From a plasmid: a DNA stretch of 28,293 bases. Below the pieces are notes generated by a model, which searched no databases, was not told where the DNA came from, and saw only the letters and a list, made by a program, of their open reading frames with translations. Shown here piece after piece: positions 1,988 to 19,221 of this stretch (its first letter is position 1; every line of letters starts with the position of its first letter). Made by a program: the position numbers and the translations under genes. The DNA is taken from the sequence record NZ_CP120882.1. One strand, written 5' to 3'.

Positions 1988-2045
1988 GTTTGCGCCGGAG
2001 ATCGGCCGCGTAGAAACGCCCAGGACGGGGACGTCTCAGAAAACG

Positions 2046-2489: not shown

Positions 2490-2513
2490 ATCTTATCCAC
2501 CGGAGCCGATGCC

Positions 2514-3455
2514 ATGACACCGCAAGCCCCCCAAATCCCCGCCGACGTGCGCGAGCGCATCATTGCCGCCGCCACTGATCTTTTCGAGCAGTCGGGCCGC
2601 GAGACGATGCCCACGGTCGATGCGGTGCGCCGGGCCGCCCGCGTGGATATGAATGCAGCCAGTGCCGTGATGAAGGAATGGCGCAGGGCGCAGACTGCCC
2701 AGGCCGCCCCGGTGGCCGTGGCGGTGCCGGAGGTTGTGCAGCAGGCCAGCAGCGCCGCCGTGGCGACGATCTGGCAGCAGGCCCAGGAGCTGGCGAACGA
2801 ATCCCTACGCAGCGCACAGGCCGCATGGGAAACCGAGCGGGCCGAGCTGGACGCGATGCGGCAGGAGCTGGCCGAGGCTTTCGAGCGCCAGGCCGGCGAG
2901 TTGGACGCGACCACGGCCGAGCTGGCCGCCGAGAAGGCCGCCACCGAAAAGCTGGCCCAGGAACTTGCCGCCGTTCGTCAAGAGCTGGGCGCAGCACAGG
3001 AACAGGCGCACACCGCCGAGGCCCGCGCCCAGGAGATCGAGCGCCGGGCCGACGAGCTGCGCACGGAACTGGACAGGGCGCACCAGGACGCCGACCAGGC
3101 ACGCGGGGCACTGGCCGAACAGCAGAAGGCCAGCCAGGCGGCCGCCGCTCAACTCGACCAGGTGCGCGCCGAGCTGGTGAAGGTGCAGGCCAAGGCCGAG
3201 GCCAACGAGGAAGCGCACCAAGAACAGCGCAAGACCGCAGCGGGCGAGGCGCACCGCATGGCCGAACGCCTCACCGCCGCCCAGGCCGAGCGCGACCAGG
3301 CCACGAAGGCGGCTGCACAGGCACGCGAAGAAGCCGCTCGCCTGGCCGGGCAGCTCGACACGCTCAAGGAGCAATCGGCCGCGCTGTTGGCCCGCATCAC
3401 ACCGCCGGCGGCCGAGGCGAAGCCCGCGACCAGGAAGAAGCCAGGCGGCGAGTGA
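2514..3455 (+). CDS. kfrA: KfrA-like alanine-rich coiled-coil DNA-binding protein
   Basis: N-terminus MTPQAPQIPADVRERIIAAATDLFEQSGRE is the HTH-like segment. A long Ala/Glu/Gln-rich heptad coiled coil follows, typical of IncP-1 KfrA. GGAG ribosome-binding site 8 nt upstream. The ORF track's upstream extension to 2349 is ignored. Confidence 0.8.
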   Translation: MTPQAPQIPADVRERIIAAATDLFEQSGRETMPTVDAVRRAARVDMNAASAVMKEWRRAQTAQAAPVAVAVPEVVQQASSAAVATIWQQAQELANESLRSAQAAWETERAELDAMRQELAEAFERQAGELDATTAELAAEKAATEKLAQELAAVRQELGAAQEQAHTAEARAQEIERRADELRTELDRAHQDADQARGALAEQQKASQAAAAQLDQVRAELVKVQAKAEANEEAHQEQRKTAAGEAHRMAERLTAAQAERDQATKAAAQAREEAARLAGQLDTLKEQSAALLARITPPAAEAKPATRKKPGGE

Positions 3456-3464
3456 CCGGCCCCC

Positions 3465-3627
3465 AGGGGGGGGCGATTTCACGAACTCAGGGGGAGGCCC
3501 GGATATTGACACTTGAGGGGCGCGGGCCTGCCTCTAGCGGCCAGGTTTGGCCGTCCTGATCTGTTGGCCGGTGGGAGGCGCAGGGGGGGGCGATTTCACG
3601 TCATGGGGTTATTGACACTTGAGGGGC
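3465..3627. repeat. Two direct repeats of about 50 bp (3465-3521 and 3581-3627), each with the motifs CAGGGGGGGGCGATTTCACG and ATTGACACTTGAGGGGC
   Basis: Found by direct sequence comparison. Repeat spacing is about 116 bp. The repeats lie between the kfrA stop and the traK stop. Confidence 0.6.
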
Positions 3628-3673
3628 CGGCCGACTGTCTCCCTTTGGCGTTCATCCACCCATCAGGGGCGGC

Positions 3674-4102
3674 TTACAGCAAGTCCTCTTTGTTCAGCGT
3701 TGGGTTGAAATTGAAGCTGGGAATCTTCCCGGCTTGCTCGCTGGCAGGGCTGGCCGGAGCTGGTACGGCCGGCTTTGGCGTGACGGCTGGAACGGTGGTC
3801 GGCGAGTCGCTGGCCGACCTGGTGGCGGCCTTCGGTGTCGGCGGCGCGGTGTCGGCCGGCGCTGCCTTGATGAACCGCTGGACGTGCCGGCGGAACGTCT
3901 CATAGCTGGTTTTCACCCGGCCGGTTTCGTGCATGTGATCGTAGATCGTCGTCAGCGCGTAACCGGCTTCCATTGCCTCGACCACATCCCCGCGCACCGC
4001 CAGAAACGCTACTGCCGCCGTGTCCTGGCGGCGCTTCTTCTCGGCCTTCTGATTGGCCCAGGCAGCAAGTTCATCGGTGTATCGGGTTCCCATCGGAATC
4101 AT
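3674..4102 (-). CDS. traK: oriT-binding relaxosome protein TraK
   Basis: 142 aa. Motifs YTDELAAWANQKAEKKRRQDTAAVAFLAVRGDV and the C-terminal FNFNPTLNKEDLL match the IncP TraK family as I recall it. The gene is divergent from traJ across oriT. The start could be the ATG at 4102 or the one at 4093. Confidence 0.75.
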   Translation of the reverse strand: MIPMGTRYTDELAAWANQKAEKKRRQDTAAVAFLAVRGDVVEAMEAGYALTTIYDHMHETGRVKTSYETFRRHVQRFIKAAPADTAPPTPKAATRSASDSPTTVPAVTPKPAVPAPASPASEQAGKIPSFNFNPTLNKEDLL

Positions 4103-4444
4103 TCCAGTTCATGAAATGTGTGCGGTCTAATGCGTGTAAAGCAGTAGGAAACTGCGTGGAAATTGGTAGTAAATCGTTGTTTGTTCGTGGATTCCATTGC
4201 ATTTTGCCCTACTGCACGCCAATACACCATTTTCCTTGCGAAAAACAATGCAATCCTACTGAACCGCTGTATAGTTTCCTTATCTAATGCAATGCTGAAT
4301 AGAGGGCAGGATGTGTGAAGTAGGCCCACCATGCAAGCATGGTGATCCTCTTCACTTCCCCTTATTCGCGCCTGCGGCGCTCAACGGGGCATCCTGCCCT
4401 GCGGGGCCAGCCGGCGGCCGCCGGCAACGACAGAGGACGCCAAG
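4103..4444. other. oriT: IncP-type origin of transfer (oriT) between traK and traJ
   Basis: 4304-4402 reads GGGCAGGATGTGTGAAGTAGGCCCACC...GGTGATCCTCTTCACTTCCCCTTATTCGCGCCTGCGGCGCTCAACGGGGCATCCTGCCC, which aligns with the RK2/RP4 oriT core (the imperfect 19-bp inverted repeat plus the ATCCTG|CCC nick motif). By analogy the nick lies on the minus strand opposite 4306/4307. A second ATCCTGCCC motif is on the plus strand at 4391-4399. The traK-proximal side (4110-4300) is AT-richer, like the TraK-binding region in RP4. Confidence 0.7.
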
Positions 4445-4822
4445 ATGGAGGCCAACGAGAACAAGGTAACGAGGAAGGGCAGTACGCCCATCAAGGTCTA
4501 TTGCCTGCCGGACGAACGGGCCGCCATCGAGGCCAACGCCCAAGCCGCCGGCATGAGCACGTCCGCCTACCTGCTGGCGGTCGGCCAGGGCTACCAGGTC
4601 AAAGGCGTGACCGACTTCGAGAACGTGCGCGACCTGGTGCGCGTGAATGGCGACCTCGGCCGGCTGGGTGGCCTGCTCAAGCTCTGGCTGACCGACGACC
4701 CGCGCACGGCTCGCTTCGGCGATGACACCATCCGGGCGCTGCTGGCCCGGATCGAGGCAACCCAGGACAAGATCAGCACCATCGCGGAAAGCGTGGTGCG
4801 GCCGCGAGGCGGGCAATCGTGA
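4445..4822 (+). CDS. traJ: Relaxosome accessory protein TraJ (binds the oriT inverted repeat)
   Basis: 125 aa. The segment KGSTPIKVYCLPDERAAIEANAQAAGMSTSAYLLAVGQGYQVKGV...GDLGRLGGLLKLWLTDDPRTARFGD is collinear with RP4 TraJ. Confidence 0.85.
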   Translation: MEANENKVTRKGSTPIKVYCLPDERAAIEANAQAAGMSTSAYLLAVGQGYQVKGVTDFENVRDLVRVNGDLGRLGGLLKLWLTDDPRTARFGDDTIRALLARIEATQDKISTIAESVVRPRGGQS

Positions 4823-6648
4823 TCGCCAAGCACGTGCCCATGCGCTCGCTGGGCAAGTCCGACTTCGCCGGCCTGGTGCGGTACGTCACCGACGCGCAGA
4901 GCAAAGACCACCGGCTGGGCCAGGTGCAGGTCACGAACTGCGCCGCCGACACCGTGCGCGATGCCATCACCGAGGTGCTGGCGACCCAGCAGGCCAACAC
5001 GCGGGCTAAGGGTGACAAGACCTATCACCTGATCGTCAGCTTTCGCGCCGGCGAGCAGCCGAGCGCCGATACCCTGCGGCAGATCGAGGCCCGCATCTGC
5101 GACGGGCTGGGCCTGGGCGAGCATCAGCGCGTCAGCGCCGTGCATAACGACACCGACAACCTGCACATCCACATCGCCATCAACAAGATTCACCCGACCA
5201 GGGGCACGATGCAGGAGCCGTACTACTCGCATCGGGCGCTGGCTGACCTCTGCGCGACCCTGGAACGCGACTACGGCCTGGAGCGGGACAACCACGAACC
5301 ACGCCAGCGCGGCGCGGCCGCCAGGGCCGGCGACCTGGAACAGCACGCCGGCGTGGAAAGCCTGGTCGGCTGGATCAAGCGCGAGTGCCTGGACGAGATC
5401 AAGGGCGCGGCGAGCTGGGCCGAGCTGCACCAGGTCATGCGCGATAACGGCCTGGCGCTGCGCGCACGCGGTAACGGCCTAGTCATCGAGGCCGGCGACG
5501 GCACGATCATCAAGGCCAGCACCTTGGCCCGCGACCTGTCCAAGCCCGCCCTGGAAAAGCGGCTTGGCACGTTCGAGGCGTCGCCCGAGCGCCAGGCCGC
5601 GCCGGCACAGCGCAACTACCAGAAGGGCCGGCCGATGCGTCTGCGCGGCGGCCTGGACACGACCGAGCTTTACGCCCGGTACAAGGGCGCACAGCAGACC
5701 CTCACGGCCGCCAGGGCCGGCGTGCTGGCCGAGGCGAAGCGCCGGAAGGATCGGGCCATCGAGCACGCCAAGAAGGCGGCGGCCACCCGGCGGGCGGCCA
5801 TCAAGCACCTGACCGATGGCCGGCTGACCAAGAAGCTGCTGTATGCCCAGGCCAGCGCCGCGCTGCGGGCCGACCTGGATGCGATCCACAAGCGCCACGA
5901 CCAGGAGCGGGCGGCGATCTACAACGAGCACCGCCGGCGGCCGTGGGCCGACTGGCTCAAGCAGCAGGCAACGGCCGGCGACGGCCAGGCGCTCGATGCG
6001 CTACGCGCCCGCGAGGCGGCCCAGGGCCTCAAGGGCGACACCATCCAGGGCGACGGCCAGGCGAAGCCCGGCCATGCCCCGGTGATCGACAGCATCACGA
6101 AGAAGGGCACGATCATCTACCGCGCCGGCAGCTCGGCCGTGCGCGATGACGGCGAGCGCCTGGCCGTGTCCAGCCAGGCCGACCGCGCCGGCGTGGCGGC
6201 GGCGCTGCGCCTGGCAATGGAACGCTACGGCGAGCGCATCACTGTCAGCGGCAGCGTGGAGTTCAAGGCCGCCGTGATCCGGGCGGCCGTCGATGCCCAG
6301 CTCCCCATCACCTTCGCCGATCCGGCACTGGAAAGCCGGCGGCAGGCCGAGGCCACCAAGGCCCAGGCCAAGCGCCGGCCAGGTGTGCCCCCTGTCGGCC
6401 AGGAGCCGCCGCCACATCGCCGGCACGGCCTGCGCACGTTGGGCCAGCTCGACGGGCTGCACATCGAGGGCGAAGCCCAGCGGCCGGCACAAGCGCCGAC
6501 CCAGGCCACCCCGACACCGCCGCCGGCCAAAGTGCAGCAGCCGGCCAGGCCCGCGCTGTCCGAGCTGGAACAGCGCGAGGCGCGGCTACGGGCGCAGATG
6601 GAAGCCAAGAAGGCGAAACGCCAGGAGGGCAAGAAGCGCGGGCGATGA
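4819..6648 (+). CDS. traI: IncP-type relaxase TraI, MOB-P family. At 609 aa it is shorter than the roughly 730-aa RP4/R751 TraI.
   Basis: GTG start overlaps the traJ stop as GTGA. N-terminus MIAKHVPMRS. The catalytic tyrosine region is LVRYVTD. The histidine triad HNDTDNLHIHIAINKI and the conserved GTIIYRAGSSAVRDDGERL block are present. The C-terminus ends in a Lys/Arg-rich tail right before an EcoRI site and the junction with trb. Confidence 0.85.
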   Translation: MIAKHVPMRSLGKSDFAGLVRYVTDAQSKDHRLGQVQVTNCAADTVRDAITEVLATQQANTRAKGDKTYHLIVSFRAGEQPSADTLRQIEARICDGLGLGEHQRVSAVHNDTDNLHIHIAINKIHPTRGTMQEPYYSHRALADLCATLERDYGLERDNHEPRQRGAAARAGDLEQHAGVESLVGWIKRECLDEIKGAASWAELHQVMRDNGLALRARGNGLVIEAGDGTIIKASTLARDLSKPALEKRLGTFEASPERQAAPAQRNYQKGRPMRLRGGLDTTELYARYKGAQQTLTAARAGVLAEAKRRKDRAIEHAKKAAATRRAAIKHLTDGRLTKKLLYAQASAALRADLDAIHKRHDQERAAIYNEHRRRPWADWLKQQATAGDGQALDALRAREAAQGLKGDTIQGDGQAKPGHAPVIDSITKKGTIIYRAGSSAVRDDGERLAVSSQADRAGVAAALRLAMERYGERITVSGSVEFKAAVIRAAVDAQLPITFADPALESRRQAEATKAQAKRRPGVPPVGQEPPPHRRHGLRTLGQLDGLHIEGEAQRPAQAPTQATPTPPPAKVQQPARPALSELEQREARLRAQMEAKKAKRQEGKKRGR

Positions 6649-6670
6649 CGCTTGCGAATTCTCGGATGTT

Positions 6671-6720
6671 CGATTAGCATCCGAGTTAGAAGCTAGAAGC
6701 TATATAGCAGCTAGTTAGCT
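6671..6720. repeat. Hairpin (ctcggatg...catccgag) followed by a cluster of TAGAAGCTAGAAGCTATATAGCAGCTAG repeats, related to the repeats flanking the parA/parG locus
   Basis: TAGCAGCTAG at 6704-6713 is identical to the motifs at 26738-26747 and 27707-27716. AGAAGCTAGA is the reverse complement of the TCTAGCTTCT repeats at 26688-26723. Confidence 0.5.
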
Positions 6721-6886
6721 TACACCGATGTTCAACAAAAATGGCCGGGCGCAACGGTGTCGCTCAGGTCGGGTACCGGGACAACGATTCGGCGTGTTGT
6801 CTCTGTGATGGCCCAACGCCGCCAGTTTGCCGAAAAGGCAGCAGGCCGGCGCAGCGCAGCCGCTCATCACATCGAGGTACTCGACC

Positions 6887-7672
6887 ATGAAACACGTCCG
6901 CCTTTTAGCGGCTAAAACCGCGCTCGCCGCTGCCCTGGCCGGCAGCATCATCATCACCCCGGCGCAGGCCGGCATTCCCGTCATCGACGGCGGGAACCTG
7001 GTGCAGAACGTCATGACGGCCATCGAGTCAGTGGCGCAGACGCTCAAGCAGATCGAGCAGTACCAGACCCAATTGCAGCAGTACGAGAACATGCTGCAAA
7101 ACACGATGGCCCCAGCGGCCTACATCTGGGATCAGGCGCAGTCCACCATCAACGGGCTGATGAATGCCGTCAACACGCTGGACTACTACAGGAACCAGCT
7201 CGGCAGTCTCGACGCCTACCTGGGCAAGTTCCAGGACGTGAGCTACTACCGCAGCTCGCCGTGCTTCTCGGCCGCCGGGTGCTCGGATGCCGAGCGCGCC
7301 GCGATGGAGCAAAACCGCCGCCTGGCGAGCGAGAGCCAGAAGAAGGCGAACGACGCGCTGTTCAAGGGTCTGGAGCAGCAGCAGCGCAACCTGACCGCCG
7401 ACGCTCGCCAGCTCGAACGGCTCCAGTCCGCTGCGCAGGGAGCGACCGGGCAGATGCAGGCCATCGGCTTCGCCAATCAGCTCGCTGCCAACCAAGCAAA
7501 CCAGCTTCTGCAAATCCGTGGCCTGCTGATCGCGCAGCAGAACGCCGCGACCGCCAGGATGCAGGCGCAGGCCGACCTTGAGGCGCAGCAGCAGGCCGCC
7601 GGCGCGACTTCCAGGGAATCCAGGATCGAGCGCACGGCAAGCCCGAGAAACTGGCTCGAACTGACCCGCTGA
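6887..7672 (+). CDS. trbJ: VirB5-like mating-pair-formation protein TrbJ
   Basis: Signal peptide MKHVRLLAAKTALAAALAGSIIITPAQAG. The block GIPVIDGGNLVQNVMTAIESVAQTLKQIEQYQTQLQQYENMLQNT is collinear with IncP-1 TrbJ. The ORF track's TTG start at 6827 is rejected in favour of the ATG at 6887, which has a GAGGT ribosome-binding site. Confidence 0.8.
   Translation: MKHVRLLAAKTALAAALAGSIIITPAQAGIPVIDGGNLVQNVMTAIESVAQTLKQIEQYQTQLQQYENMLQNTMAPAAYIWDQAQSTINGLMNAVNTLDYYRNQLGSLDAYLGKFQDVSYYRSSPCFSAAGCSDAERAAMEQNRRLASESQKKANDALFKGLEQQQRNLTADARQLERLQSAAQGATGQMQAIGFANQLAANQANQLLQIRGLLIAQQNAATARMQAQADLEAQQQAAGATSRESRIERTASPRNWLELTR
6904..6916. promoter_or_regulatory. KorB operator (OB): TTTAGCGGCTAAA, inside the first codons of trbJ
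   Basis: Exact OB consensus. It encodes RLLAAKT of the TrbJ signal peptide. Confidence 0.7.
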
Positions 7673-7687
7673 CGGAGGCCCTGCACC

Positions 7688-7954
7688 ATGAAGAAAACGA
7701 TGCTGCTTGCCGGCCTCGTGGTGGTGCTGGTGGCTGGCTGCGACAACAAGCCGGCCATCCCGCCCATGCCCGAGGTCAATGACACCAATTGCCAGATCGA
7801 GGCGATCAAGAAGATCGAGGACAGGGCCACGCGCGAGAAATTCGCCGGGCTGTGCTCGCGTCGGTCGCCGGCCGCCGGCGGCATCGCGCCGACCGAGAAG
7901 CCCATGAACTGGCTCGAACTGGCCGACCCGAAAGACCAGGAGGCGAAGCCATGA
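7688..7954 (+). CDS. trbK: Entry-exclusion lipoprotein TrbK
   Basis: 88 aa. Lipoprotein signal MKKTMLLAGLVVVLVAGC with lipobox LVAGC. Its position between trbJ and trbL matches IncP-1. Confidence 0.65.
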   Translation: MKKTMLLAGLVVVLVAGCDNKPAIPPMPEVNDTNCQIEAIKKIEDRATREKFAGLCSRRSPAAGGIAPTEKPMNWLELADPKDQEAKP

Positions 7955-9612
7955 AAGCACTGCACAAGGCGGCGCTGATCGGCGTCACCCTCGCGCTTTA
8001 CTCCACCGCCGCATCGGCCCAGCTCACCAACCAAGGGATGCTTGACCAGGTGGTGACGGAGTTCGCCACGCGGGCCACGTCCTGGCAGACGGTGGTGATG
8101 AATGCCGCGATGTTCCTGTTCTGGACGCTGGGCACGATCTCGCTGGTTTTCACGTTCGGCTTCATGGCGCTGCGCAAGGCCGACATTGGCGAGTTCTTCG
8201 CCGAGTTCATCCGCTTCATCCTGTTCTTTGGCTTCTTCCTCTGGCTGCTGCGCAACGGCCCGGCCTTCGCCAACTCGATCATCCAGTCATTGGCCCGGAT
8301 CGGTGAGCAGGCGTCCGGGGTGGCATCGGTGACACCCTCGGGCATCGTGGATATCGGCTTCATGATCTTGAAGCAGGCATTCAGCAACTCGTCGATCTGG
8401 TCGCCCGTGGATAGCTTCATCGGCGTGGCCTTGAGCCTCGGCATCCTGATCTTGCTGGCTGTCGTTGCCATAAACATGCTGTTGCTGCTCGTCTCGGGCT
8501 GGCTGCTGATGTACGCCGGCATCTTCTTCCTCGGCTTCGGCGGAAGCCGTTGGACGTCCGACATGGCGATCAACTACTACAAGACCGTGTTGGGCGTGGC
8601 CGTGCAGATCATGACGATGGTGCTCCTGGTCGGCATCGGGAACGACCTGCTTTCCAGCTTCTACGCCAGGATGAACACCGGCACGCTGAACTTTGAAGAG
8701 CTGGGCGTGATGCTGGTTTTCTGCGTGGCGTTGCTCATGCTGGTCAATCGCGTGCCGCCGCTTGTCGCCGGCATCATCACCGGCTCGGGTATCGGTGGCG
8801 CTGGTGGCATCGGCAACTTCGGTGCAGGTGCTGCCATCGGTGCGGCTATGGGCGCGGCGAGCATGGCCGCCGGTGCGGCAAGCGTGGCCGGCGCGGCCGT
8901 GATGGGTGGTGCAGCCTCGGCCGCCGGCGGCATGTCGGCCATCAAAGCAGCGTTCGAGAAAGCGGGATCGAGCGCCGGCGGCGAGTCGGGCGGAATGCCC
9001 ATGCTCGGCGGTGGCTCCGACTCCGGCAGCGATGCAGGCTCGTTTGCGCAAGCTGCTGGCTTTGGTGGCGGGTCAAGCTCAGGAGCGGGCACCACTACAC
9101 CACTTGCACAGGCCGCCGGTTTCGGCAGCAGCTCGGGCAGCGGTGCCAGCGGCTCGGGTGGAAGCAATGGGCAACAGCCCGGTAAATCGGGTGGAGGTTC
9201 CAGCTCGAAGGGTGGCGACGAAGCCGGCAGCAAGAAAGCCCAGCAAGGCGGCCAGCAGGCAGCACCAGGCAGCACCGGCCCCGGCTTGCTGGCCTCGGCC
9301 GCATCGGCGCTTGGCACGGCGGGCCGCGTGACGGCCGACGCCGGCGCGAACCTGATGCAAGGCGTCGGCGAGGTTGCGAAGGCCAAGGCCGCCAGCATGC
9401 GCGACGCCGCCGCCGAACGCATCGCTGACACCACCGGCGGGAAGATCGCGGCGGCTATCAGGGCGAGTGCGGAGAGTGACCAGGCCGCCGCTGTCGAGGC
9501 GGTGCCGACATTCGGCGGCAACAACCTGGCAGGGGCCGATTCGGCTGCTGCCGATCCTGATGACGAAGTGGCCGCGTTCGCCAACCGCGAGCACGGTAAA
9601 TCGGAGGCGTGA
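7951..9612 (+). CDS. trbL: VirB6-like inner-membrane mating-pair-formation protein TrbL
   Basis: ATG at 7951 overlaps the trbK stop, with an AGGAGG ribosome-binding site. Signal peptide MKALHKAALIGVTLALYSTAASA. Multiple transmembrane segments and a Gly/Ser/Ala-rich C-terminal tail, as in IncP TrbL. Confidence 0.8.
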   Translation: MKALHKAALIGVTLALYSTAASAQLTNQGMLDQVVTEFATRATSWQTVVMNAAMFLFWTLGTISLVFTFGFMALRKADIGEFFAEFIRFILFFGFFLWLLRNGPAFANSIIQSLARIGEQASGVASVTPSGIVDIGFMILKQAFSNSSIWSPVDSFIGVALSLGILILLAVVAINMLLLLVSGWLLMYAGIFFLGFGGSRWTSDMAINYYKTVLGVAVQIMTMVLLVGIGNDLLSSFYARMNTGTLNFEELGVMLVFCVALLMLVNRVPPLVAGIITGSGIGGAGGIGNFGAGAAIGAAMGAASMAAGAASVAGAAVMGGAASAAGGMSAIKAAFEKAGSSAGGESGGMPMLGGGSDSGSDAGSFAQAAGFGGGSSSGAGTTTPLAQAAGFGSSSGSGASGSGGSNGQQPGKSGGGSSSKGGDEAGSKKAQQGGQQAAPGSTGPGLLASAASALGTAGRVTADAGANLMQGVGEVAKAKAASMRDAAAERIADTTGGKIAAAIRASAESDQAAAVEAVPTFGGNNLAGADSAAADPDDEVAAFANREHGKSEA

Positions 9613-9614
9613 CC

Positions 9615-9872
9615 ATGAAACGTAGTGGCTTTTTCGACTGCCTGGCGCTCGACCAGGTGCAGCGGCCGGCGGTGGAGTTTGAGCAGCCTGGCGACCAATC
9701 AACCGAGCTTGATGCGGCGGCGGAAGTGGCGGCCTTCGTTGATCGCCCTGCCCCGTCTGCCATCGAGGCCACCAGGCCGGCGGCCAGGTCATCGAGCAAC
9801 AGCTACAGCGGCAGCAACAGGAACACGCCGCTGGCAGAGGCCGCCGGCATCTACAGCAGCGGCCAGCGGTAA
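9615..9872 (+). CDS. Hypothetical 85-aa ORF downstream of trbL. It could be a degenerate remnant of the next trb gene.
   Basis: ATG 3 bp after the trbL stop. No signal peptide. Ser/Ala-rich low-complexity C-terminus. Confidence 0.3.
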   Translation: MKRSGFFDCLALDQVQRPAVEFEQPGDQSTELDAAAEVAAFVDRPAPSAIEATRPAARSSSNSYSGSNRNTPLAEAAGIYSSGQR

Positions 9873-9935
9873 AGCGCGCCGGCCGGCGTGGGGCCGGCCG
9901 ACACTTCCACAACCCACCTACCACAGAGGTGAATC

Positions 9936-10169
9936 ATGGCAACTTTGAATCCTACCAATGCAATCGCAACCCAGGCAGTTCATCATGCGGCCGCGCAGCT
10001 CGCGGCCCTGGACTGGATCGACCAAGAGGCGGCGCGGCAGCTCTCGCCGATGGCGGAAGCCGTCGCCAATATGTTCATGGTGCTGTACTACCAGGCCGAG
10101 ACGGGCCAGGCCACGCGGGACGACTTCCGCCAGGCCCTGGACGCGGTGCGGCAGTCACTTACCGCGTAG
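9936..10169 (+). CDS. Hypothetical small protein (77 aa)
   Basis: AGAGGTG ribosome-binding site 6 nt upstream. Followed directly by a strong terminator. Confidence 0.45.
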   Translation: MATLNPTNAIATQAVHHAAAQLAALDWIDQEAARQLSPMAEAVANMFMVLYYQAETGQATRDDFRQALDAVRQSLTA

Positions 10170-10179
10170 GCTCAACCAG

Positions 10180-10216
10180 AAACAACAAGGGCGGCCATTG
10201 GCCGCCCTTGTTGTTT
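10180..10216. terminator. Bidirectional rho-independent terminator with a perfect 17-bp stem (aaacaacaagggcggcc / ggccgcccttgttgttt) and a 3-nt loop
   Basis: Seen directly. It lies between the plus-strand trb-side operon and the converging minus-strand vapD. Confidence 0.7.
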
Positions 10217-10226
10217 CAATGCCCAC

Positions 10227-10511
10227 TTATAGCGCAGGTGCAAGGTCGTTCATTTCTTCGATACGGAGCATCCTAATGTCACGCACAGAGGCTTTGAACC
10301 ATGTGTAAGTCGTACTGAGTTGCTGTGCGGCCAAGACACACTGAACTGCATTGATGCGTTCATCGCCGAAGTAGACGCTTCCCTGTTGCCAAGAGAACCC
10401 GAGAGGTTCTAGCGTTTTGCGAATGTCCCCGTAAGCGTTGTTCCAGGACGGATTGGGGTAAGACTGTTTGAGTGTTTCTGTATCAAGATCGAAAGCAATG
10501 GCGTAGGTCAT
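10227..10511 (-). CDS. vapD: VapD-family (Cas2-like) endoribonuclease
   Basis: 94 aa. MTYAIAFDLDTETLKQ...LGFSWQQGSVYFGD...KASVRDIRMLRIEEMNDL matches the VapD family pattern. The local region is about 50% GC against about 65% for the backbone. Confidence 0.8.
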   Translation of the reverse strand: MTYAIAFDLDTETLKQSYPNPSWNNAYGDIRKTLEPLGFSWQQGSVYFGDERINAVQCVLAAQQLSTTYTWFKASVRDIRMLRIEEMNDLAPAL

Positions 10512-10520
10512 CGTGTTCCC

Positions 10521-10790
10521 TTAGTTGTAAGAGCGGCGGGGTGCAATTTGGGATACACGGGCTGAGCTGACGCCGTACTTTTCGGCAACGGCCTTTGTTG
10601 CAGCGCCGTTTGCGATCTCGGCTTGGATGGCGCTGTTGCGCAGTTCCATGACTTTGGTTTCGAGGGCCGCGATGTCTTGGCCTTGGCTCTCGATGATTTT
10701 CCCGTGCGTTGCGACGGTCTTTTCCAAGTCCTTATGCGCCTTGGCGATTGATTCAAGCGCGTGCAGGATGTGGTTCTTTTGGCGTGCCAT
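10521..10790 (-). CDS. VapD-partner protein (VapX-like position) with a C-terminal resolvase-type HTH
   Basis: 89 aa. Helical N-terminus. C-terminal ATKAVAEKYGVSSARVSQIA resembles the HTH_7/Hin-type motif. AAGGGAA ribosome-binding site for vapD lies 9 bp downstream. An AT-rich near-palindrome TTAAATTAAATTAATTTAA sits in its promoter at 10806-10826. Confidence 0.5.
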   Translation of the reverse strand: MARQKNHILHALESIAKAHKDLEKTVATHGKIIESQGQDIAALETKVMELRNSAIQAEIANGAATKAVAEKYGVSSARVSQIAPRRSYN

Positions 10791-11145
10791 CTTTGGCCTC
10801 CATGCTGTTAAATTAAATTAATTTAACCACATTAAGAGGATATGGTCAAGCAGGGAGCGGCCTGCAGCACCGTCAGAAATGGCGATGCTGGCCATTGCTC
10901 TTCTATGCCGGTTCGTTCTGCCCTTCCTTGGCGTCCAACAACGGCCAGAGAAGCAACCGGCTCAGGCTATGCGCCTGGTTCAACAAGGCGGCAAGCGGCC
11001 CGCCCATCGCCTCGTCGGCCAACCACCAGCGCAGAAGTTGGGGTCGTTTGCGGGAAGGGGCGGAATCCTACGCTAAGGCTTTGGCCAGCGATATTCTCCG
11101 GTGAGATTGATGTGTTCCCAGGGGATAGGAGAAGTCGCTTGATAT

Positions 11146-11982
11146 CTAGTATGACGTCTGTCGCACCTGCTTGATCGCGGCCGCGATAGCTAGATCGCGT
11201 TGCTCCTCTTCTCCATCCGCGTTCCAAGCTGCGGAAAGGCACCCATAAGCGTACGCCTGGTCGAGCAGGCGACGCGGATCGACGTCCAGCGCACGAGAGA
11301 ATGCGTCCGCCATCTGTGCAATGCGTCTAGGATCGAGACAAAGGTCGTCTCTGTCAGCCGGATCGTAGAACATATTGGCGGCGCCAAAGCCCACTTCACC
11401 GACCAGACCGACGGGATCTATCACCAGCCAGCCGCGACTGGAGAACATGATGTTTTCATGATGCAGATCGCCATGTAGCCCACGCAGTTCCGAGGCATTG
11501 CTCATCATTTGATCGGCTATAATCGCCGCGTGGACGTAGTCAGTTTGACAACCTGCGTTTTGATCATCGCGCGCCCGCTGAAACAAAGCTGCAAAGCGAT
11601 CCCGGATCGGGAGAAGGGCAGAAGGCAGGGGTTCCTCAGATGCGGCATACAGCTTCGCCATTAGTTCCGCTGCAATTTCGGTCGCCTGGTAGTCGCCGTG
11701 CTCGGCAACGATGTGAGAGAGCATTCGCTCCCCGGCATATTCGAGCAACATCAGATTGTTCTCACGACCGAGCAACCGGACTGCTCCCCTCCCATTGCGC
11801 CATACCAGATAGTCGGCCCCGCGCAGTTCATCAGCAATGTCTTCTATAGGTTTCAATCCCTTGACGATTGCAGGAGTCCCGTCTGGCAATGAAACTTTCC
11901 AAACGAGGCTGGAAAAGGTGTCCGCAATGAGAACAGGTTGCGAAACGTGCCAATGAGCAGGAAAAACAGGCGGCATGAACAT
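11146..11982 (-). CDS. strB: Aminoglycoside 6-phosphotransferase APH(6)-Id (streptomycin resistance)
   Basis: The protein starting MFMPPVFPAHWHVSQPVLIADTFSSLVWKV... is the StrB sequence as I recall it. It overlaps the strA stop as TGATG. Confidence 0.9.
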   Translation of the reverse strand: MFMPPVFPAHWHVSQPVLIADTFSSLVWKVSLPDGTPAIVKGLKPIEDIADELRGADYLVWRNGRGAVRLLGRENNLMLLEYAGERMLSHIVAEHGDYQATEIAAELMAKLYAASEEPLPSALLPIRDRFAALFQRARDDQNAGCQTDYVHAAIIADQMMSNASELRGLHGDLHHENIMFSSRGWLVIDPVGLVGEVGFGAANMFYDPADRDDLCLDPRRIAQMADAFSRALDVDPRRLLDQAYAYGCLSAAWNADGEEEQRDLAIAAAIKQVRQTSY

Positions 11983-12785
11983 CAACCCCAAGTCAGAGGG
12001 TCCAATCGCAGATAGAAGGCAAGGCGTTCGCGGTCGGGGGCTTCGATCCCCAATACATTGAATAGGACAGCGAAGGCGCGCTCTGCTTCATCTGGCGCTG
12101 CCCAGTTCTCTTCGGCGTTAGCAATCATGAGTGCCAAATCGGCATAGCGATCTGCTGTTCCGAGCCGCCCAAGGTCGATCAGACCCGTGCATTGAAGAGT
12201 TTTAGGGTCCACCATGAAGTTCGGCATGCAGGGATCACCATGGCAAACAACCATATCGGTGCGCTCTTGGTCGAGCCGCACCGGTAGCTCTCGTTCGACA
12301 CGAGCCAAAAGATCGAGCTGCGGCGTACTCTTGTCCTCGTCCGGTAAGAAGTCGGGATTGACGGCATTGCGGGACACCACATCAACGGCGCGTCCGAACA
12401 TTCGCGACAGCCTGCGCTCAAACGGACATTGATCAACCGATAGGCTGTGAACAGCGCCAAGTTGCTGCCCCATTGACGGCCACGCTTTGAGCAAATCCGC
12501 TCCAGACAGATCAGCCGCCGGTACTCCCGGAATTGCCGTTATCACCAAGCATGCACCCTCCTGTTCCTCCTGCCAGTTGATGACCTCGGGGCAAGCCACA
12601 CCTCGACCTTTGAGCCAAATGAGGCGGTCACGCTCTCCAGCGAGCTCACCGCGGCGGGAAGCAGGTGCGATTTTCGCGAAGGCATGCCCGTCACCACGTC
12701 GAAAAACAAAATCACCAGATTCTCCGCCTCTGACAGGCAACCAGTCAGAATGCGATTCACCAAAAAAAATATTAGTTCGATTCAA
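11982..12785 (-). CDS. strA: Aminoglycoside 3''-phosphotransferase APH(3'')-Ib (streptomycin resistance)
   Basis: 267 aa. MNRTNIFFGESHSDWLPVRGGESGDFVFRRGDGHAFAKIAP... is the StrA sequence as I recall it. Confidence 0.9.
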   Translation of the reverse strand: MNRTNIFFGESHSDWLPVRGGESGDFVFRRGDGHAFAKIAPASRRGELAGERDRLIWLKGRGVACPEVINWQEEQEGACLVITAIPGVPAADLSGADLLKAWPSMGQQLGAVHSLSVDQCPFERRLSRMFGRAVDVVSRNAVNPDFLPDEDKSTPQLDLLARVERELPVRLDQERTDMVVCHGDPCMPNFMVDPKTLQCTGLIDLGRLGTADRYADLALMIANAEENWAAPDEAERAFAVLFNVLGIEAPDRERLAFYLRLDPLTWG

Positions 12786-12796
12786 TGGAGGTTCCT

Positions 12797-13465
12797 TCAG
12801 TTTTCTGATGAAGCGCGGAGGTGGCTCAACTTGCGAAAAGAAACGAGTTGCGACGTAAGTCCGAGAACATGCTTTCCATGGTCTCTGAGCTCGCCTTTGG
12901 GACCGACATATCGGTAGAGAGTGACGCGCTCGATGCCGAGTTCCTTGCAGAGATCGGAAACTGAAGTATCGCGCTGGGCCATGGCGGCTTGCGCGAGACG
13001 CACCTGAGCTTTGGTGAGCGCGAATTTTCGTCCGCCCTTGCGACCGCGCGCTCTCGCGGAGGCGAGACCCGCCATGGTGCGCTCTCGGATCAGATCCCGC
13101 TCGAACTCGGCCAAGGTGGCGAAGATTCCGAACACCATGCGACCGGACGCAGTCGTGGTGTCGATCTGAGCGCCCTTTCCAGTCAGAACCCGCAGGCCGA
13201 TCTTGCGGTCTGACAGCTCCTTCACCGTGTTGACCAGATGGGCAAGCGATCGTCCGAGGCGATCGAGCTTCCAGACCACCAGCACATCGCCGTCACGCAA
13301 TGACTTGAGGCAGGCAGTCAAGCCAGGGCGATCATCACGACCGCCGGAAGCAAGATCATCATAGATATTGTCCCGTTCGACACCTGCGGCGCGCAAGGTG
13401 TCGTGCTGCAGGTCGAGAGACTGCGAGCCATCGGCTTTGGAGACGCGGGCATATCCGATCAGCAT
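12797..13465 (-). CDS. tnpR: Tn5393 serine resolvase TnpR
   Basis: MLIGYARVSKADGSQSLDLQ is the catalytic-serine motif. HTH at the C-terminus. Divergent from tnpA across the res region 13466-13590. Confidence 0.85.
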   Translation of the reverse strand: MLIGYARVSKADGSQSLDLQHDTLRAAGVERDNIYDDLASGGRDDRPGLTACLKSLRDGDVLVVWKLDRLGRSLAHLVNTVKELSDRKIGLRVLTGKGAQIDTTTASGRMVFGIFATLAEFERDLIRERTMAGLASARARGRKGGRKFALTKAQVRLAQAAMAQRDTSVSDLCKELGIERVTLYRYVGPKGELRDHGKHVLGLTSQLVSFRKLSHLRASSEN

Positions 13466-13590
13466 GTATCACAAACGTTGGTTTGAGGCGGCGCTTCGGC
13501 CACGATTGCATTGACCTCTGGAAATGTATCTCAACCAGCTTCATAAACAAAGCGTCTTGAACGCTATCAGATTTTGAAAAAGGAACATGT

Positions 13591-16476
13591 ATGCCGCGTC
13601 GCGTCACTCTAACCGATCGGCAGAAAGACGCGCTGTTGCGCTTGCCGACTTCACAGACGGATTTGCTCAAGCACTATACGCTGAGTGATGAAGACCTTGG
13701 GCATATCAGGCTGCGTCGGCGCGCTCACAACAGGTTCGGCTTCGCCCTGCAATTGTGTGTCCTGCGCTATCCCGGCCGGGTGCTGGCTCCAGGCGAACTG
13801 ATCCCTGCAGAGGTCATCGAATTTATCGGAGCGCAGCTTGGCCTGGGTGCCGACGATCTCGTAGACTATGCTGCCCGCGAGGAAACACGGCACGAGCATC
13901 TTGCCGAGTTACGGGGGCTCTACGGCTTCCGCACCTTCTCCGGACGTGGTGCGAGCGAGCTGAAGGAATGGTTGTTCCGAGAAGCCGAGATGGCGGTGTC
14001 GAACGAGGATATCGCCCGTCGCTTCGTAGCCGAGTGCCGACGCACCCGCACTGTCCTTCCCGCGACATCCACGATCGAGCGGCTTTGTGCCGCGGCTCTC
14101 GTCGATGCCGAGCGACGCATCGAGACGAGGATCGCCATTCGTCTGCCTATGTCGATCCGAGAACAGTTGCTGGCATTGCTCGAGGAGACGGCTGATGATC
14201 GGGTGACCCGTTTTGTGTGGCTGCGCCAGTTCGAGCCTGGCTCGAACTCTTCGTCGGCCAACCGGCTGCTCGACCGGCTCGAATATCTGCAACGCGTCGA
14301 TCTCCCCGAGGATCTGCTTGCCGGCGTTCCTGCCCATCGGGTGACTCGTCTGCGCAGGCAGGGTGAACGGTATTATGCCGACGGCATGCGCGATCTCCCG
14401 GAGGACAGGCGGCTTGCGATCTTGGCTGTTTGCGTCTCGGAATGGCAGGCGATGTTGGCCGACGCAGTGGTCGAAACCCACGACCGGATCGTCGGCCGTC
14501 TCTACCGTGCTTCGGAGCGTATTTGCCATGCAAAGGTCGCAGACGAAGCGGGGGTGGTGCGTGACACCCTGAAATCCTTCGCCGAGATCGGGGGCGCCCT
14601 GGTCGATGCACAGGATGATGGCCAGCCGCTGGGCGACGTCATCGCGAGCGGATCAGGGTGGGACGGCTTCAAAACCCTTGTTGCAATGGCAACCAGGCTC
14701 ACCGCCACCATGGCCGACGATCCGCTCAACCATGTGCTCGACGGTTATCACCGCTTCCGCCGATACGCTCCACGCATGTTGCGCCTGCTCGATCTGCGAG
14801 CTGCGCCCGTTGCACTGCCGCTTCTGGAAGCGGTGACGGCCCTTCGTACCGGTTTGAACGATGCCGCGATGACCAGCTTCTTGCGGCCCAGCTCGAAATG
14901 GCATCGCCACCTTCGGGCCCAGAGGGCTGGCGACGCTCGCCTATGGGAGATCGCGGTGCTGTTCCATCTGCGCGATGCGTTCCGCTCCGGAGATGTCTGG
15001 CTTACTAGGTCCCGGCGCTATGGCGATCTGAAACACGCACTCGTTCCGGCACAAGCCATCGCGGAAGGCGGTCGTCTCGCTGTGCCATTGCGGCCGGAGG
15101 AATGGCTGGCAGACCGGCAAGCTCGCCTCGACATGCGGTTGCGCGAGCTTGGCCGTGCCGCTCGCGCAGGCACGATCCCGGGCGGGTCGATTGAAAACGG
15201 CGTTCTGCATATCGAGAAACTCGAAGCCGCCGCGCCGACAGGCGCCGAAGATCTGGTGCTCGATCTCTACAAGCAGATCCCGCCCACGCGCATCACCGAT
15301 CTCCTGCTGGAGGTGGATGCGGCGACCGGCTTCACCGAAGCGTTCACCCATCTGCGCACAGGAGCACCCTGCGCTGACCGGATCGGGCTAATGAACGTTA
15401 TCTTGGCGGAAGGGATCAACCTCGGCTTGCGCAAAATGGCGGATGCGACAAACACCCACACCTTCTGGGAATTGATCCGCATTGGACGGTGGCATGTCGA
15501 GGGCGAAGCCTATGACCGGGCGCTGGCCATGGTGGTCGAGGCACAGGCAGCGTTACCCATGGCCCGGTTCTGGGGCATGGGCACGTCGGCTTCGAGCGAC
15601 GGACAGTTCTTCGTCGCTACAGAGCAAGGTGAGGCCATGAACCTGGTCAACGCGAAATATGGCAATACCCCGGGCCTGAAAGCCTATAGCCACGTCTCCG
15701 ACCAATATGCGCCGTTCGCAACCCAGGTGATTCCTGCAACGGCAAGCGAAGCGCCTTACATCCTCGATGGCCTGCTGATGAACGATGCTGGACGCCATAT
15801 CCGCGAGCAGTTCACCGACACGGGCGGCTTCACCGATCACGTCTTTGCCGCATGTGCCATTCTCGGCTACCGGTTCGCTCCGCGCATCCGCGACCTGCCA
15901 TCCAAACGGCTCTACGCGTTCAATCCGTCGGCCGCCCCGGCGCACCTGCGAGCGTTGATCGGCGGAAAGGTCAACCAAGCCATGATCGAGCGCAATTGGC
16001 CCGACACCCTGCGCATCGCCGCCACCATTGCTGCCGGGACCGTCGCGCCAAGCCAGATTCTGCGGAAACTCGCCTCCTATCCGCGGCAGAACGAGCTCGC
16101 GACAGCCCTGCGGGAAGTCGGTCGCGTCGAGCGCACCCTGTTCATGATCGACTGGATTCTGGATGCCGAACTCCAACGGCGTGCCCAGATCGGGCTCAAC
16201 AAAGGCGAAGCTCATCATGCGCTGAAGCGGGCAATCAGCTTCCACCGCCGCGGTGAAATCCGCGACCGTTCCGCCGAAGGCCAGCATTACCGCATCGCCG
16301 GCATGAATCTGCTCGCCGCCATCATCATCTTCTGGAACACCATGAAGCTCGGCGAGGTCGTTGCAAACCAGAAACGCGATGGAAAGCTGCTATCGCCCGA
16401 TCTCTTGGCCCATGTTTCGCCGCTCGGATGGGAACACATCAATCTCACCGGAGAATATCGCTGGCCAAAGCCTTAG
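13591..16476 (+). CDS. tnpA: Tn3-family DDE transposase TnpA
   Basis: 961 aa. Ends inside the left inverted repeat, as is typical of the Tn3 family. AAGGAA ribosome-binding site. Confidence 0.9.
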   Translation: MPRRVTLTDRQKDALLRLPTSQTDLLKHYTLSDEDLGHIRLRRRAHNRFGFALQLCVLRYPGRVLAPGELIPAEVIEFIGAQLGLGADDLVDYAAREETRHEHLAELRGLYGFRTFSGRGASELKEWLFREAEMAVSNEDIARRFVAECRRTRTVLPATSTIERLCAAALVDAERRIETRIAIRLPMSIREQLLALLEETADDRVTRFVWLRQFEPGSNSSSANRLLDRLEYLQRVDLPEDLLAGVPAHRVTRLRRQGERYYADGMRDLPEDRRLAILAVCVSEWQAMLADAVVETHDRIVGRLYRASERICHAKVADEAGVVRDTLKSFAEIGGALVDAQDDGQPLGDVIASGSGWDGFKTLVAMATRLTATMADDPLNHVLDGYHRFRRYAPRMLRLLDLRAAPVALPLLEAVTALRTGLNDAAMTSFLRPSSKWHRHLRAQRAGDARLWEIAVLFHLRDAFRSGDVWLTRSRRYGDLKHALVPAQAIAEGGRLAVPLRPEEWLADRQARLDMRLRELGRAARAGTIPGGSIENGVLHIEKLEAAAPTGAEDLVLDLYKQIPPTRITDLLLEVDAATGFTEAFTHLRTGAPCADRIGLMNVILAEGINLGLRKMADATNTHTFWELIRIGRWHVEGEAYDRALAMVVEAQAALPMARFWGMGTSASSDGQFFVATEQGEAMNLVNAKYGNTPGLKAYSHVSDQYAPFATQVIPATASEAPYILDGLLMNDAGRHIREQFTDTGGFTDHVFAACAILGYRFAPRIRDLPSKRLYAFNPSAAPAHLRALIGGKVNQAMIERNWPDTLRIAATIAAGTVAPSQILRKLASYPRQNELATALREVGRVERTLFMIDWILDAELQRRAQIGLNKGEAHHALKRAISFHRRGEIRDRSAEGQHYRIAGMNLLAAIIIFWNTMKLGEVVANQKRDGKLLSPDLLAHVSPLGWEHINLTGEYRWPKP

Positions 16477-16617
16477 CGTAGGATTCCGCCCCCTCCCGCA
16501 AACGACCCCAAGTTCGCCGGCCTCGTTGCGGGCTTCCAGTCGCCCGCTCTCAAACATCCAGATCGCAGTCATTGTGCGTACCTCGTTTCCGGGAAAAGCC
16601 CCAGGGAAACGGTACCG

Positions 16618-16968: not shown

Positions 16969-17135
16969 CGGCGGGCCTTATCGAGCCAGGCCAGCGTTTC
17001 AGCATCGCGGGCGGCTACGCGGGCCAGCAGCTCGCGCAGCAGCGCGGCCATGCTCATGCCGTGCGCGGCTGAGATAGCGGCAGCTTCGGCCTTCACGGCC
17101 GCCGGTACGGCGGCGCTCACGGTCTTGGTGGTCAT
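16965..17135 (-). CDS. Small ribbon-helix-helix (CopG/Arc-like) protein, 56 aa. It falls below the ORF-track length cutoff.
   Basis: Translated by hand as MTTKTVSAAVPAAVKAEAAAISAAHGMSMAALLRELLARVAARDAETLAWLDKARR. A beta-strand KTVSAAVP is followed by helices. Its ATG overlaps the ParE stop as TGATG, and its stop overlaps the next gene's ATG. Confidence 0.5.
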   Translation of the reverse strand: MTTKTVSAAVPAAVKAEAAAISAAHGMSMAALLRELLARVAARDAETLAWLDKARR

Positions 17136-17428
17136 CAGTAGCCCGCCTCTTTCTGGTGCCGGAAGGCCAGAACATACACCGCATCGTCGGCCGGTTCGTG
17201 GCGGTACAGGGCCACATAGCCGGAATCCCCGAAGGCAATCACCAGCTCGCGCAGCTCGGGCATTTCAGGGAACGGCCGGCCAATGTCCGGGGCCGTCTCC
17301 AGCAGCAGGAATTGCCGCTCGATGGCCTGGCCGGCACGCCTGGCGGCGTCCGGTGCCTTGACGGCCAGGAACCGCCGGCATCGTTCCAAGCCTTCCGCCG
17401 CGCCTTCGGTGACGATTACTTGTGGCAC
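17135..17428 (-). CDS. parE: ParE/RelE-family type II toxin
   Basis: 97 aa. Length, the pattern ...FPEMPELRELVIAFGDSGYVALYRHEPADDAVYVLAFRHQKE, and the 13-nt overlap with the upstream antitoxin gene all fit ParE-type toxins. Confidence 0.7.
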   Translation of the reverse strand: MPQVIVTEGAAEGLERCRRFLAVKAPDAARRAGQAIERQFLLLETAPDIGRPFPEMPELRELVIAFGDSGYVALYRHEPADDAVYVLAFRHQKEAGY

Positions 17429-17688
17429 TCAGGCACCGCCCTTTCGTCATTGGTGCCCCAGGTGTTCAACCAGGTGCGAACTTCCTGGCCGGTCAGGTGG
17501 CGGCCGGTTTCCTTGTAGGCCGCCCAGGACGCCAAGGCTTCCTGCTTGAAGCTCTCGCGGGCTTCTTCGCGCTCGACGTACTGCTGGATCGCTTCGAGCA
17601 TGATCCAGTGGGGCGAGCGGCGGCGCTGGCTGGCGAGGTGCTGGACGCGACCTTTCAGCGTGTCGTCGATCTTGAGAGACGTTGCCAT
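17416..17688 (-). CDS. RHH-type antitoxin (ParD/CopG-like) paired with ParE
   Basis: 90 aa. N-terminus MATSLKIDDTLKGRVQHLA is the RHH strand. AAGAGG ribosome-binding site. The promoter region carries the inverted repeat TTATCAC-N13-GTGATAA at 17699-17725, the likely autoregulatory operator. Confidence 0.65.
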   Translation of the reverse strand: MATSLKIDDTLKGRVQHLASQRRRSPHWIMLEAIQQYVEREEARESFKQEALASWAAYKETGRHLTGQEVRTWLNTWGTNDERAVPECHK

Positions 17689-19203: not shown

Positions 19204-19221
19204 ATCACAAAGTACAGCATC

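Follow-up and report, generated by a model that had tools for sequence, protein, structure and literature searches.

In the 28,293-nucleotide (nt) stretch of DNA analysed here (the window; sequence record NZ_CP120882.1), which is the complete Pseudomonas aeruginosa resistance plasmid pNY7583-catB3 (CP120882), the gene of a VapD toxin lies directly behind the gene of an 89-amino-acid (aa) protein, here called the partner, and the two are preceded by an AT-rich palindrome at the only promoter-like site of the cassette that carries them. The partner belongs to an undescribed family of small proteins that are predicted to bind DNA, and the palindrome recurs upstream of homologues across this family, where it co-varies with the recognition helix of the encoded protein. 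We propose that the partner would act as an autorepressor limiting VapD expression, with transcriptional control as its main role, a reading to which we give a probability of about one half. Neither operator sequences nor a helix-turn-helix (HTH) partner for VapD was found in the searchable literature; what is new is the HTH-type, operator-defined partner, VapD itself being a member of a known family.

Layout of the vapD operon and its promoter

Read along the minus strand, the operon runs from a -35 element through a palindrome carrying the -10 hexamer, a GGAGG ribosome-binding site (RBS), the 89-aa gene and a 9-nt gap to vapD. Its elements, and those that bound it, are as follows.

10844..10849, minus strand: -35 element TTGACC, 18 nt upstream of the -10 hexamer, from a promoter scan
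10802..10832: putative operator, a 15+1+15 imperfect inverted repeat with 87% complementarity
10797..10801, minus strand: ribosome-binding site GGAGG, 6 nt before the partner ATG
10521..10790, minus strand: partner gene, 89 aa, 9 nt upstream of vapD
10512..10520, minus strand: spacer of 9 nt, TAA-GGGAACACG-ATG
10227..10511, minus strand: vapD, 94 aa, encoding a Cas2-like nuclease toxin
10179..10217, both strands: bidirectional intrinsic-terminator-like hairpin (A-tract, GC stem, T-tract), a backbone element
10861..10896: backbone restart and right edge of the cassette, 94% identical to pMATVIM-7, with a small hairpin at 10878-10896

At its core (10808-10826) the putative operator has the sequence TTAAATTAAATTAATTTAA, a perfect inverted repeat of the form 9+1+9 (TTAAATTAA-A-TTAATTTAA) that holds a -10-like hexamer, TAAATT (10825..10820, minus strand). 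Scanning the cassette for promoters returned just one promoter-like site. A search tolerating two mismatches still found no other copy of the palindrome in the window, and 100 shuffles produced none. An earlier note made from the sequence had singled out a conspicuous AT palindrome at this promoter, and that observation is borne out by its perfect 9+1+9 symmetry and by its recurrence and covariation in the family, described below. The segment 10180-10840 to which that note confined the islet does hold the elements it described, but the -35 element (10844-10849) lies just beyond its right coordinate.

Downstream of the promoter, an AAGGGA Shine-Dalgarno-like sequence in the 9-nt spacer overlaps the stop codon of the partner gene, and on this arrangement vapD is likely to be translationally coupled to the gene before it.

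Conservation of the palindrome and covariation with the recognition helix

A word-indexed search returned 116 clusters of partner homologues at 90% identity, all of them unnamed, while a profile search of a 50%-identity library gave 310 representatives at E <= 1e-3, a figure that includes coiled-coil false positives and proteins with 4-12 tandem HTH modules. In the latter proteins (P0117, P0121, P0135 and P0136), the 4-12 tandem copies are of a module of roughly 35 aa, ERNxAIxxDLRxGMSxKEAAxKYGLxxxxIxxIAxK, which corresponds to the C-terminal HTH of the partner.

For the analysis of the operator, 84 homologue-encoding loci from genomes and metagenomes, comprising 365 kb, were used. In 27 of the 84 loci, the partner open reading frame (ORF) is preceded, at a distance of 26-88 nt, by the exact motif TTAAATT-N5-AATTTAA, and one more exact copy was found just inside the extended ORF call of another locus; elsewhere in the 365 kb it occurs once. 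Relaxed forms of the motif bring the count to 39 loci, and near-matches (at least 12 of 14 positions) are present in most of the loci other than the 27, usually just downstream of a TTGAC(A) sequence. When the loci were aligned on the palindrome, most of them showed a TTGAC(A) -35 element immediately before it and an RBS after it; since it is flanked by these two elements in most loci, the palindrome occupies the spacer, the -10 and the start region of the promoter. In addition, the arms are conserved around a variable 5-nt centre, a pattern that two half-sites contacted by a dimer should show.

The form of the palindrome also follows that of the protein. A variant motif, TTTA[GA]T-N1-3-A[CT]TAAA, is present in all 11 non-redundant loci whose homologue has a ...GR[IV]xQI recognition helix, and the main motif in none of them; among the 64 loci with an [AS]R[IV]xQI helix, the main motif was found in 29 and the variant in 2. 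Taken together, positional specificity, preserved symmetry and covariation of helix and operator form the signature predicted for a repressor and its operator.

These observations bear directly on the possibility that the palindrome is not a protein operator at all, but an AT-rich promoter or UP-like element, a recombination site or a leader RNA hairpin. The motif is frequent by chance in AT-rich genomes, and the minus strand of 10795-10840, folded as RNA, reaches -14.7 kcal/mol (z -3.9), with a CCUCU that pairs with the GGAGG Shine-Dalgarno sequence of the partner gene; both would suit such an explanation. We nevertheless consider it very improbable: 27 exact copies upstream of the partner ORF stand against a single one elsewhere, the symmetry is kept as the centre varies, and the motif changes with the recognition helix. 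The RNA fold is relevant only for transcripts starting upstream of 10840, and the predicted transcription start, near 10812-10814 on the minus strand, lies inside the palindrome, so that transcripts from this promoter would not contain the complete hairpin.

A longer form of the palindrome was observed in three loci (L016, L062 and L063), where it reaches about 40-45 nt, about 50 nt before the partner ORF, and takes in the -35 element TTGACA together with an inverted copy of it (cttgacacagaaaTTAAATTAAGTAAATTTAAtttctgtgtcaag); these three palindromes precede genes for SMC-like ATPases and suggest a larger symmetric operator or a divergent promoter.

The partner protein

An AF2 model of the partner (31 homologues) has a pLDDT of 89 and is all-helical, with helices at residues 2-60, 65-72 and 76-82. 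The long helix of residues 2-60 presumably serves, on this model, for coiled-coil dimerisation, and the recognition helix, SSARVSQIAPRR, lies in a C-terminal tri-helical HTH. The last 31-38 residues superpose at 0.6-2.6 A on the HTHs of Sin resolvase, Hin, KorB and LuxR-type proteins, and also on that of the IS21 transposase. For Sin (2r0q), the root-mean-square deviation is 0.6 A over 33-34 residues, with a probability of 0.91-0.94, and for Hin (1hcr) the probability is 0.57. In the predicted model the HTH thus superposes on domains of this class that were solved bound to DNA, and the presence of a C-terminal HTH in the partner is well supported. A resolvase/Hin-type HTH had been claimed earlier for this end of the protein; the HTH stands, but the resolvase/Hin label is one among equally good ones (KorB, LuxR-type, IS21), and no recombinase catalytic domain was found in the partner.

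Profile searches left the partner without a Pfam, NCBIfam, PADLOC or PDB family above threshold; a match to DUF3071/SepH, at 3e-4, was likewise sub-threshold. Two candidate assignments were examined and rejected. The first, a relative of the VapD partners VapX, VapY or VapW, found no sequence match and is at odds with the all-helical fold: no PDB sequence match to VapX chains was obtained at E <= 10, no VapX appeared among the top 50 Foldseek matches listed, and no Cas2 or VapD match for the partner was returned by Pfam, NCBIfam or PADLOC. The second, an MbeD/MobD mobilisation protein, was prompted by a weak Pfam match and by homologues on small mobilisable plasmids of Pasteurellaceae, but the Pfam match reaches only 13 bits and the Pasteurella homologue has no MbeD_MobD match. 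On those plasmids of 3-3.5 kb, such as Pasteurella stomatis pB000a (L095, 1847-2104), the homologues (about 46-53% identity) stand alone as one of only three annotated genes, and cannot act there as a VapD partner.

The VapD toxin

The product of the second gene is, by its sequence, an ordinary member of the VapD family. It scores 26.2 bits against Pfam CRISPR_Cas2 (cut-off 23.8) and matches the VapD of Helicobacter pylori (PDB 3ui3) at E 2e-19, that of Xylella as well, and that of Haemophilus influenzae (6zn8, 6zi0) at about 2e-9, while the NCBIfam VapD equivalog model gives 62.6 bits, under its cut-off of 100. Catalytic Asp and Ser residues are required in VapD (PMC11980593). Asp8 (AFDLD), Ser45 (QGSVY) and Asp78 (VRDIR) align with the catalytic D7, S43 and D76 of 3ui3, so that the protein is not an inactivated copy of the VapW type. 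The earlier description of VapD as a Cas2-like RNase holds as far as the Cas2-like fold family is concerned (CRISPR_Cas2); since VapD toxins induce the SOS response (PMC11980593), "RNase" may not fit the relevant cellular activity.

Cassette VapD shares 71% identity with its counterpart on the Neisseria gonorrhoeae conjugative plasmid pConj; the pConj protein is toxic when induced in E. coli, is neutralised by VapX in trans and aids plasmid maintenance (PMC10212123); by analogy, the cassette protein would be toxic as well. An identical VapD protein is recorded on 264 contigs, and the 89-aa partner lies directly upstream in both of the longest sites examined among them.

Shuffled pairings of partner and VapD

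Only among the closest homologues of the partner does VapD follow directly on its 3' side, with gaps of 8-24 nt: this was the case in 11 metagenome loci and in the tiny plasmids pM02_c2 and pTM18-2, whose partner is about 75-79% and VapD about 86-89% identical to those of the cassette. Many homologues that are 60-80% identical over their full length precede genes other than vapD. The products of these downstream genes include a PD-T4-6-like Ser/Thr kinase, a 630-aa SMC/LmuB/Ppl-like ATPase, a HEPN-like protein, an NYN-plus-OST-HTH RNase, resolvases, and the replication proteins RPA, Rep_1 and ColE2-type Rep. In addition, a ThsB-type TIR gene (L073/L074, 3365-4060; PADLOC ThsB1, E 1e-124) lies behind a distant homologue. 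A complete Thoeris system was rejected for this locus, as there is a ThsB-like TIR only and no ThsA in the 3-kb flanks of L073/L074; weak SduA/DUF4263-like matches were observed near the TIR gene. The metagenome contig L028 matches the partner gene and not vapD, and the ORF that follows the partner there clusters with ORFs lying further downstream in the vapD-carrying contigs L029, L030 and L032.

The converse holds for VapD. In VapDs 71-84% identical to that of the cassette, the upstream gene is different or absent: in some loci it encodes a protein of 124-128 aa, VapD P0340 has a different upstream gene in some loci and none in L109, and the pConj VapD has none either. Other small genes were observed before VapD, namely one for an unrelated 69-aa HTH protein, separated by a 27-nt gap (L110-L117; about 1594-1803 in L110), and one for a 73-aa helical protein (L102-L108; 1695-1916 in L102), and VapDs of 77-84% identity are carried on small Mob_Pre or Rep_1 plasmids. 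Because the partner precedes varied genes and VapDs have varied upstream neighbours, both genes are modular on these comparisons, the partner-VapD pairing being one combination among several.

A further small ORF, of 64-74 aa (MxDSWCxP...GGAARN...), was noted between partner and vapD in L025-L027 (3289-3492 in L025), and also directly after a partner homologue in L004 (4262-4486) and L041 (978-1172). It has no above-threshold match in Pfam or PADLOC, and could be a third component or an alternative antitoxin.

Such shuffling raises the question of whether partner and VapD are functionally linked at all. They might be mere neighbours, a general plasmid regulator (e.g., of copy number or replication) next to a tolerated, low-activity passenger vapD, which would agree with homologues placed directly before RPA, Rep_1 and ColE2-type rep genes, with those standing alone on the 3-kb Pasteurellaceae plasmids and with orphan VapDs elsewhere. 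In the cassette, though, the two genes can hardly escape co-transcription, given the 9-nt gap, the Shine-Dalgarno-like sequence over the stop codon and the lack of a separate promoter; the pair is found again, with gaps of 8-24 nt, in independent backbones; and the plasmid's own rep lies 10 kb away, with no second operator in the window. We therefore regard unlinked neighbours as an improbable explanation.

Autorepression or direct neutralisation

In the mechanism that we favour, the 89-aa protein would dimerise through its long N-terminal helix, and its two C-terminal HTHs would bind the two half-sites of TTAAATT-N5-AATTTAA, the centres of which are about 12 bp apart. Binding would cover the -10 and start region of the sole promoter and occlude RNA polymerase, so that the operon would repress itself; vapD, coupled 9 nt downstream, would therefore be made only at a low, copy-number-buffered level. 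VapD held at such a level may serve plasmid maintenance or defence without killing the host. Elsewhere in the family, repressor and operator could be a portable front end placed before dose-sensitive genes, such as those for nuclease or TIR effectors, kinases, ATPases and Rep proteins.

Several points weigh against autorepression as the main role of the partner. The loci behind the conservation and covariation counts are phylogenetically related and are not independent events. The motif alone is also carried by 120 viral contigs (median GC 33%), and the partner is encoded by none of them (0/120); the motif is therefore not diagnostic by itself in AT-rich DNA; this motif-first search of viral contigs, with its 120 motif loci, also gave no link to phages. 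At the cassette promoter, the -10 hexamer matches at only four of six positions. Regarding the protein, no statistically significant Foldseek match was obtained for the whole chain (best E 0.6), the Pfam HTH matches (HTH_23, HTH_28, Sigma70_r4) are all sub-threshold, and we infer DNA binding and repression for the family from sequence only. Finally, the gene arrangement matches a classical type II toxin-antitoxin operon exactly; neutralisation would normally be required for a toxin that is translated together with its repressor; and the closest characterised VapD, that of pConj, needs VapX in trans when over-expressed (PMC10212123).

Partner and VapD may instead form a type II pair of a fourth VapD kind, in which the partner would repress the operon and also neutralise VapD by direct binding, with its long helix lying, for example, in the cleft of the VapD dimer; VapD would then be released as the partner turned over faster, once the plasmid was lost or while a phage attacked. 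The canonical layout, with a small upstream gene for a predicted DNA-binding protein, a 9-nt gap and a promoter palindrome, speaks for this, and so does the 71%-identical pConj VapD, a toxic protein that requires an antitoxin and helps to maintain its plasmid. Moreover, partner and vapD have been kept together through divergence (pM02_c2, pTM18-2 and about 12 metagenome contigs), and many of the other downstream genes are toxin-like (HEPN, NYN, TIR), which would fit a promiscuous antitoxin. Nevertheless, the partner has no variable or disordered segment for binding a toxin, and its homologues keep 60-80% identity over their whole length whether they precede genes for VapD, Rep, a kinase or a HEPN-like protein; the same VapD (P0340) is found with a different upstream gene and with none; and the partner is unlike VapX, VapY and VapW. 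We thus hold a fourth kind of pair to be possible but on the doubtful side, direct neutralisation of VapD by the partner being less likely than its control of transcription. Where the earlier note had left the partner as either a DNA-binding antitoxin or a regulator, the regulator half is the one favoured, given the unrelated downstream genes and the near-identical VapDs with other partners or none.

Boundaries and acquisition of the cassette

The segment 10180-10840 has a GC content of 51.4%, compared with 66.1% for the backbone (1-10216) and 61.2% for the whole window; within the cassette, the value is 31% in the promoter stretch, 49.5% in vapD and 55.9% in the partner gene. Identity to plasmid pMATVIM-7 is 96% as far as 10216, the final base of the left hairpin; vapD and partner are then missing from that plasmid, and its homology restarts at 10861-10894, with 94% identity, and in pMATVIM-7 this restart stretch lies directly downstream of a convergent 'transcriptional regulator' gene. 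As the homology stops at 10216 and resumes at 10861, the acquired cassette, of roughly 643 bp, extends over about 10218-10860, in the gap where two backbone operons converge. Low GC content and absence from pMATVIM-7 are best explained by horizontal acquisition of a self-contained two-gene operon on the minus strand, and the low-GC acquired islet proposed in the earlier note is supported by the same two comparisons. In other contexts, only the two coding regions of the cassette find similar DNA, with 67-78% identity. The islet was also considered as a transposable unit, which was rejected: no flanking repeats were seen, and DNA homology elsewhere is limited to those two coding regions.

The left edge of the cassette directly follows the hairpin at 10179-10217, which has perfect arms of 19 nt; its RNA fold, a stem of 18 bp closed by a loop of 3 nt, has an energy of -35.2 kcal/mol for the plus strand and -42.9 for the minus strand (z-scores -9.2 and -8.1, respectively). 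On each strand the GC stem has an A-tract before it and a T-rich tract after it, as in a bidirectional intrinsic terminator, and the hairpin would end the transcript of the ptaRNA1 toxin and trb genes from the left and that of vapD from the right. That the hairpin is a component of the islet was ruled out, and it is assigned to the backbone, because it is kept in pMATVIM-7 and other relatives without vapD. A bidirectional terminator with a 17-bp stem had been described as the left boundary; the hairpin is there and bounds the islet, but its stem is of 18 bp and it belongs to the backbone.

Plasmid context

Positions 9900-11150 are 100% identical to three P. aeruginosa plasmids, of the 'IncpSE5381-aadB' group. 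Plasmid pNY7583-catB3 has been described in PMC11135338, where vapD and its neighbouring gene go unmentioned. The features on either side of the cassette are listed below.

end at 9612: trbJ, trbK and trbL, backbone, left of the cassette
9615-9872: small ORF, backbone, left of the cassette
9872-9942, minus strand: PtaRNA1 antisense RNA (Rfam RF01811, 84.7 bits)
9936-10169, plus strand: gene of the 77-aa PtaRNA1 type I toxin (PF12703, E 1.6e-39)
11040-16509: Tn5393c (strA, strB, tnpR, tnpA), with the 5-bp target duplication AAGTT at 11035-11039 and 16510-16514

A complete PtaRNA1 type I toxin-antitoxin module thus lies directly left of the cassette, its antisense RNA overlapping the 5' end of the toxin gene. 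On the right, Tn5393c interrupts a hypothetical ORF of 64 aa on the minus strand (10903-11039 plus 16515-16572), which is uninterrupted in the megaplasmid pZYPA187 (L003, 8937-9131); insertion of Tn5393c is an event distinct from, and later than, that of the cassette. A third addiction-type module, a RelE/ParE-family toxin with a CopG ribbon-helix-helix partner, is present at 17135-17688 (annotation of an identical plasmid), where it adjoins a class 1 integron with intI1 at 18048-19061. Rfam also identified a traJ-II RNA upstream of traJ (4304-4408, 109.5 bits) and an AAC_AAD_leader/attI element at the integron cassette junction (19151-19221, 81.1 bits).

Comparison with known regulators and VapD systems

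The controller (C) proteins of restriction-modification systems are small dimeric HTH proteins that recognise a palindromic box in their own promoter and are co-transcribed with the gene of a toxic nuclease. They provide homeostatic control on mobile DNA, have an Xre-type five-helix HTH_3 fold without a long coiled coil, and activate at low dose. The partner would work alike in its proposed role, but low-dose activation is not implied for it, and the Xre-type feature is lacking, as no HTH_3, HTH_31 or HTH_19 match was obtained in Pfam at E <= 1. MqsA and HigA are DNA-binding type II antitoxins with a folded C-terminal HTH, encoded adjacent to or upstream of the toxin, which autoregulate through a promoter palindrome; each has a dedicated toxin-binding domain and serves one toxin family. 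The partner, in contrast, is a single helix plus an HTH and is conserved whatever gene follows. Factors of the Mor/C type of phage Mu (PHROG 836) share with it an N-terminal dimerisation helix and a C-terminal HTH, and the PHROG 836 match is weak (E 1.6e-4, partner residues 39-86); Mor and C are phage activators, however, and the 120 viral contigs with the motif that were examined yielded no homologue of the partner.

Among VapD systems, partners of three types, VapX, VapY and VapW, have been described, and for about 50% of VapDs no neighbour recurs consistently (Gilep et al., mBio 2025, PMC11980593). The statement in the earlier note that VapD usually pairs with VapX is therefore too narrow: VapX is a known partner, but so are VapY and VapW, and about half of VapDs are unassigned. 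VapXD (H. influenzae, PDB 6ZN8), VapYD and VapWD resemble the cassette in having a VapD/Cas2-like toxin with catalytic Asp and Ser and a small, co-oriented gene immediately upstream, in a plasmid-borne module. They differ in the partner: VapX and VapY fold as SH3-like beta-barrels, VapW being an inactivated VapD, whereas the cassette partner is predicted to be all-helical, with an HTH and a conserved putative operator, and the text of PMC11980593 mentions no HTH or DNA-binding domain for VapX, VapY or VapW. Cassette VapD is closest to the VapDs of H. pylori, called stand-alone (PMC11980593), and of pConj. The latter orphan, also located beside trb transfer genes of a P-type plasmid, has no adjacent partner, its VapX coming from another replicon, whereas the cassette encodes its HTH gene in cis, upstream of vapD.

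Significance

The cassette is carried on multidrug-resistance plasmids and on a 452-kb megaplasmid of clinical P. aeruginosa, and, standing beside the PtaRNA1 and ParE/CopG addiction modules, it may contribute to plasmid persistence. It offers a testable type of partner, a putative HTH repressor with a defined operator, for at least part of the half of VapDs that are unassigned. More tentatively, the coiled-coil-HTH protein and its operator might together be an unrecognised, portable plug-in module for autoregulation, distributed over several phyla and placed before dangerous or dose-sensitive cargo; such a module would explain some of the VapDs without an assigned antitoxin. If it also served as a trigger, with repression lifted upon arrival in a naive cell, loss of the plasmid or infection by phage, it would represent a new class of transcription-level 'antitoxin' and defence regulator. 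Overall, a repressor with its operator before unrelated toxin, defence and replication genes of distant bacteria may be a general device for carrying harmful genes safely.

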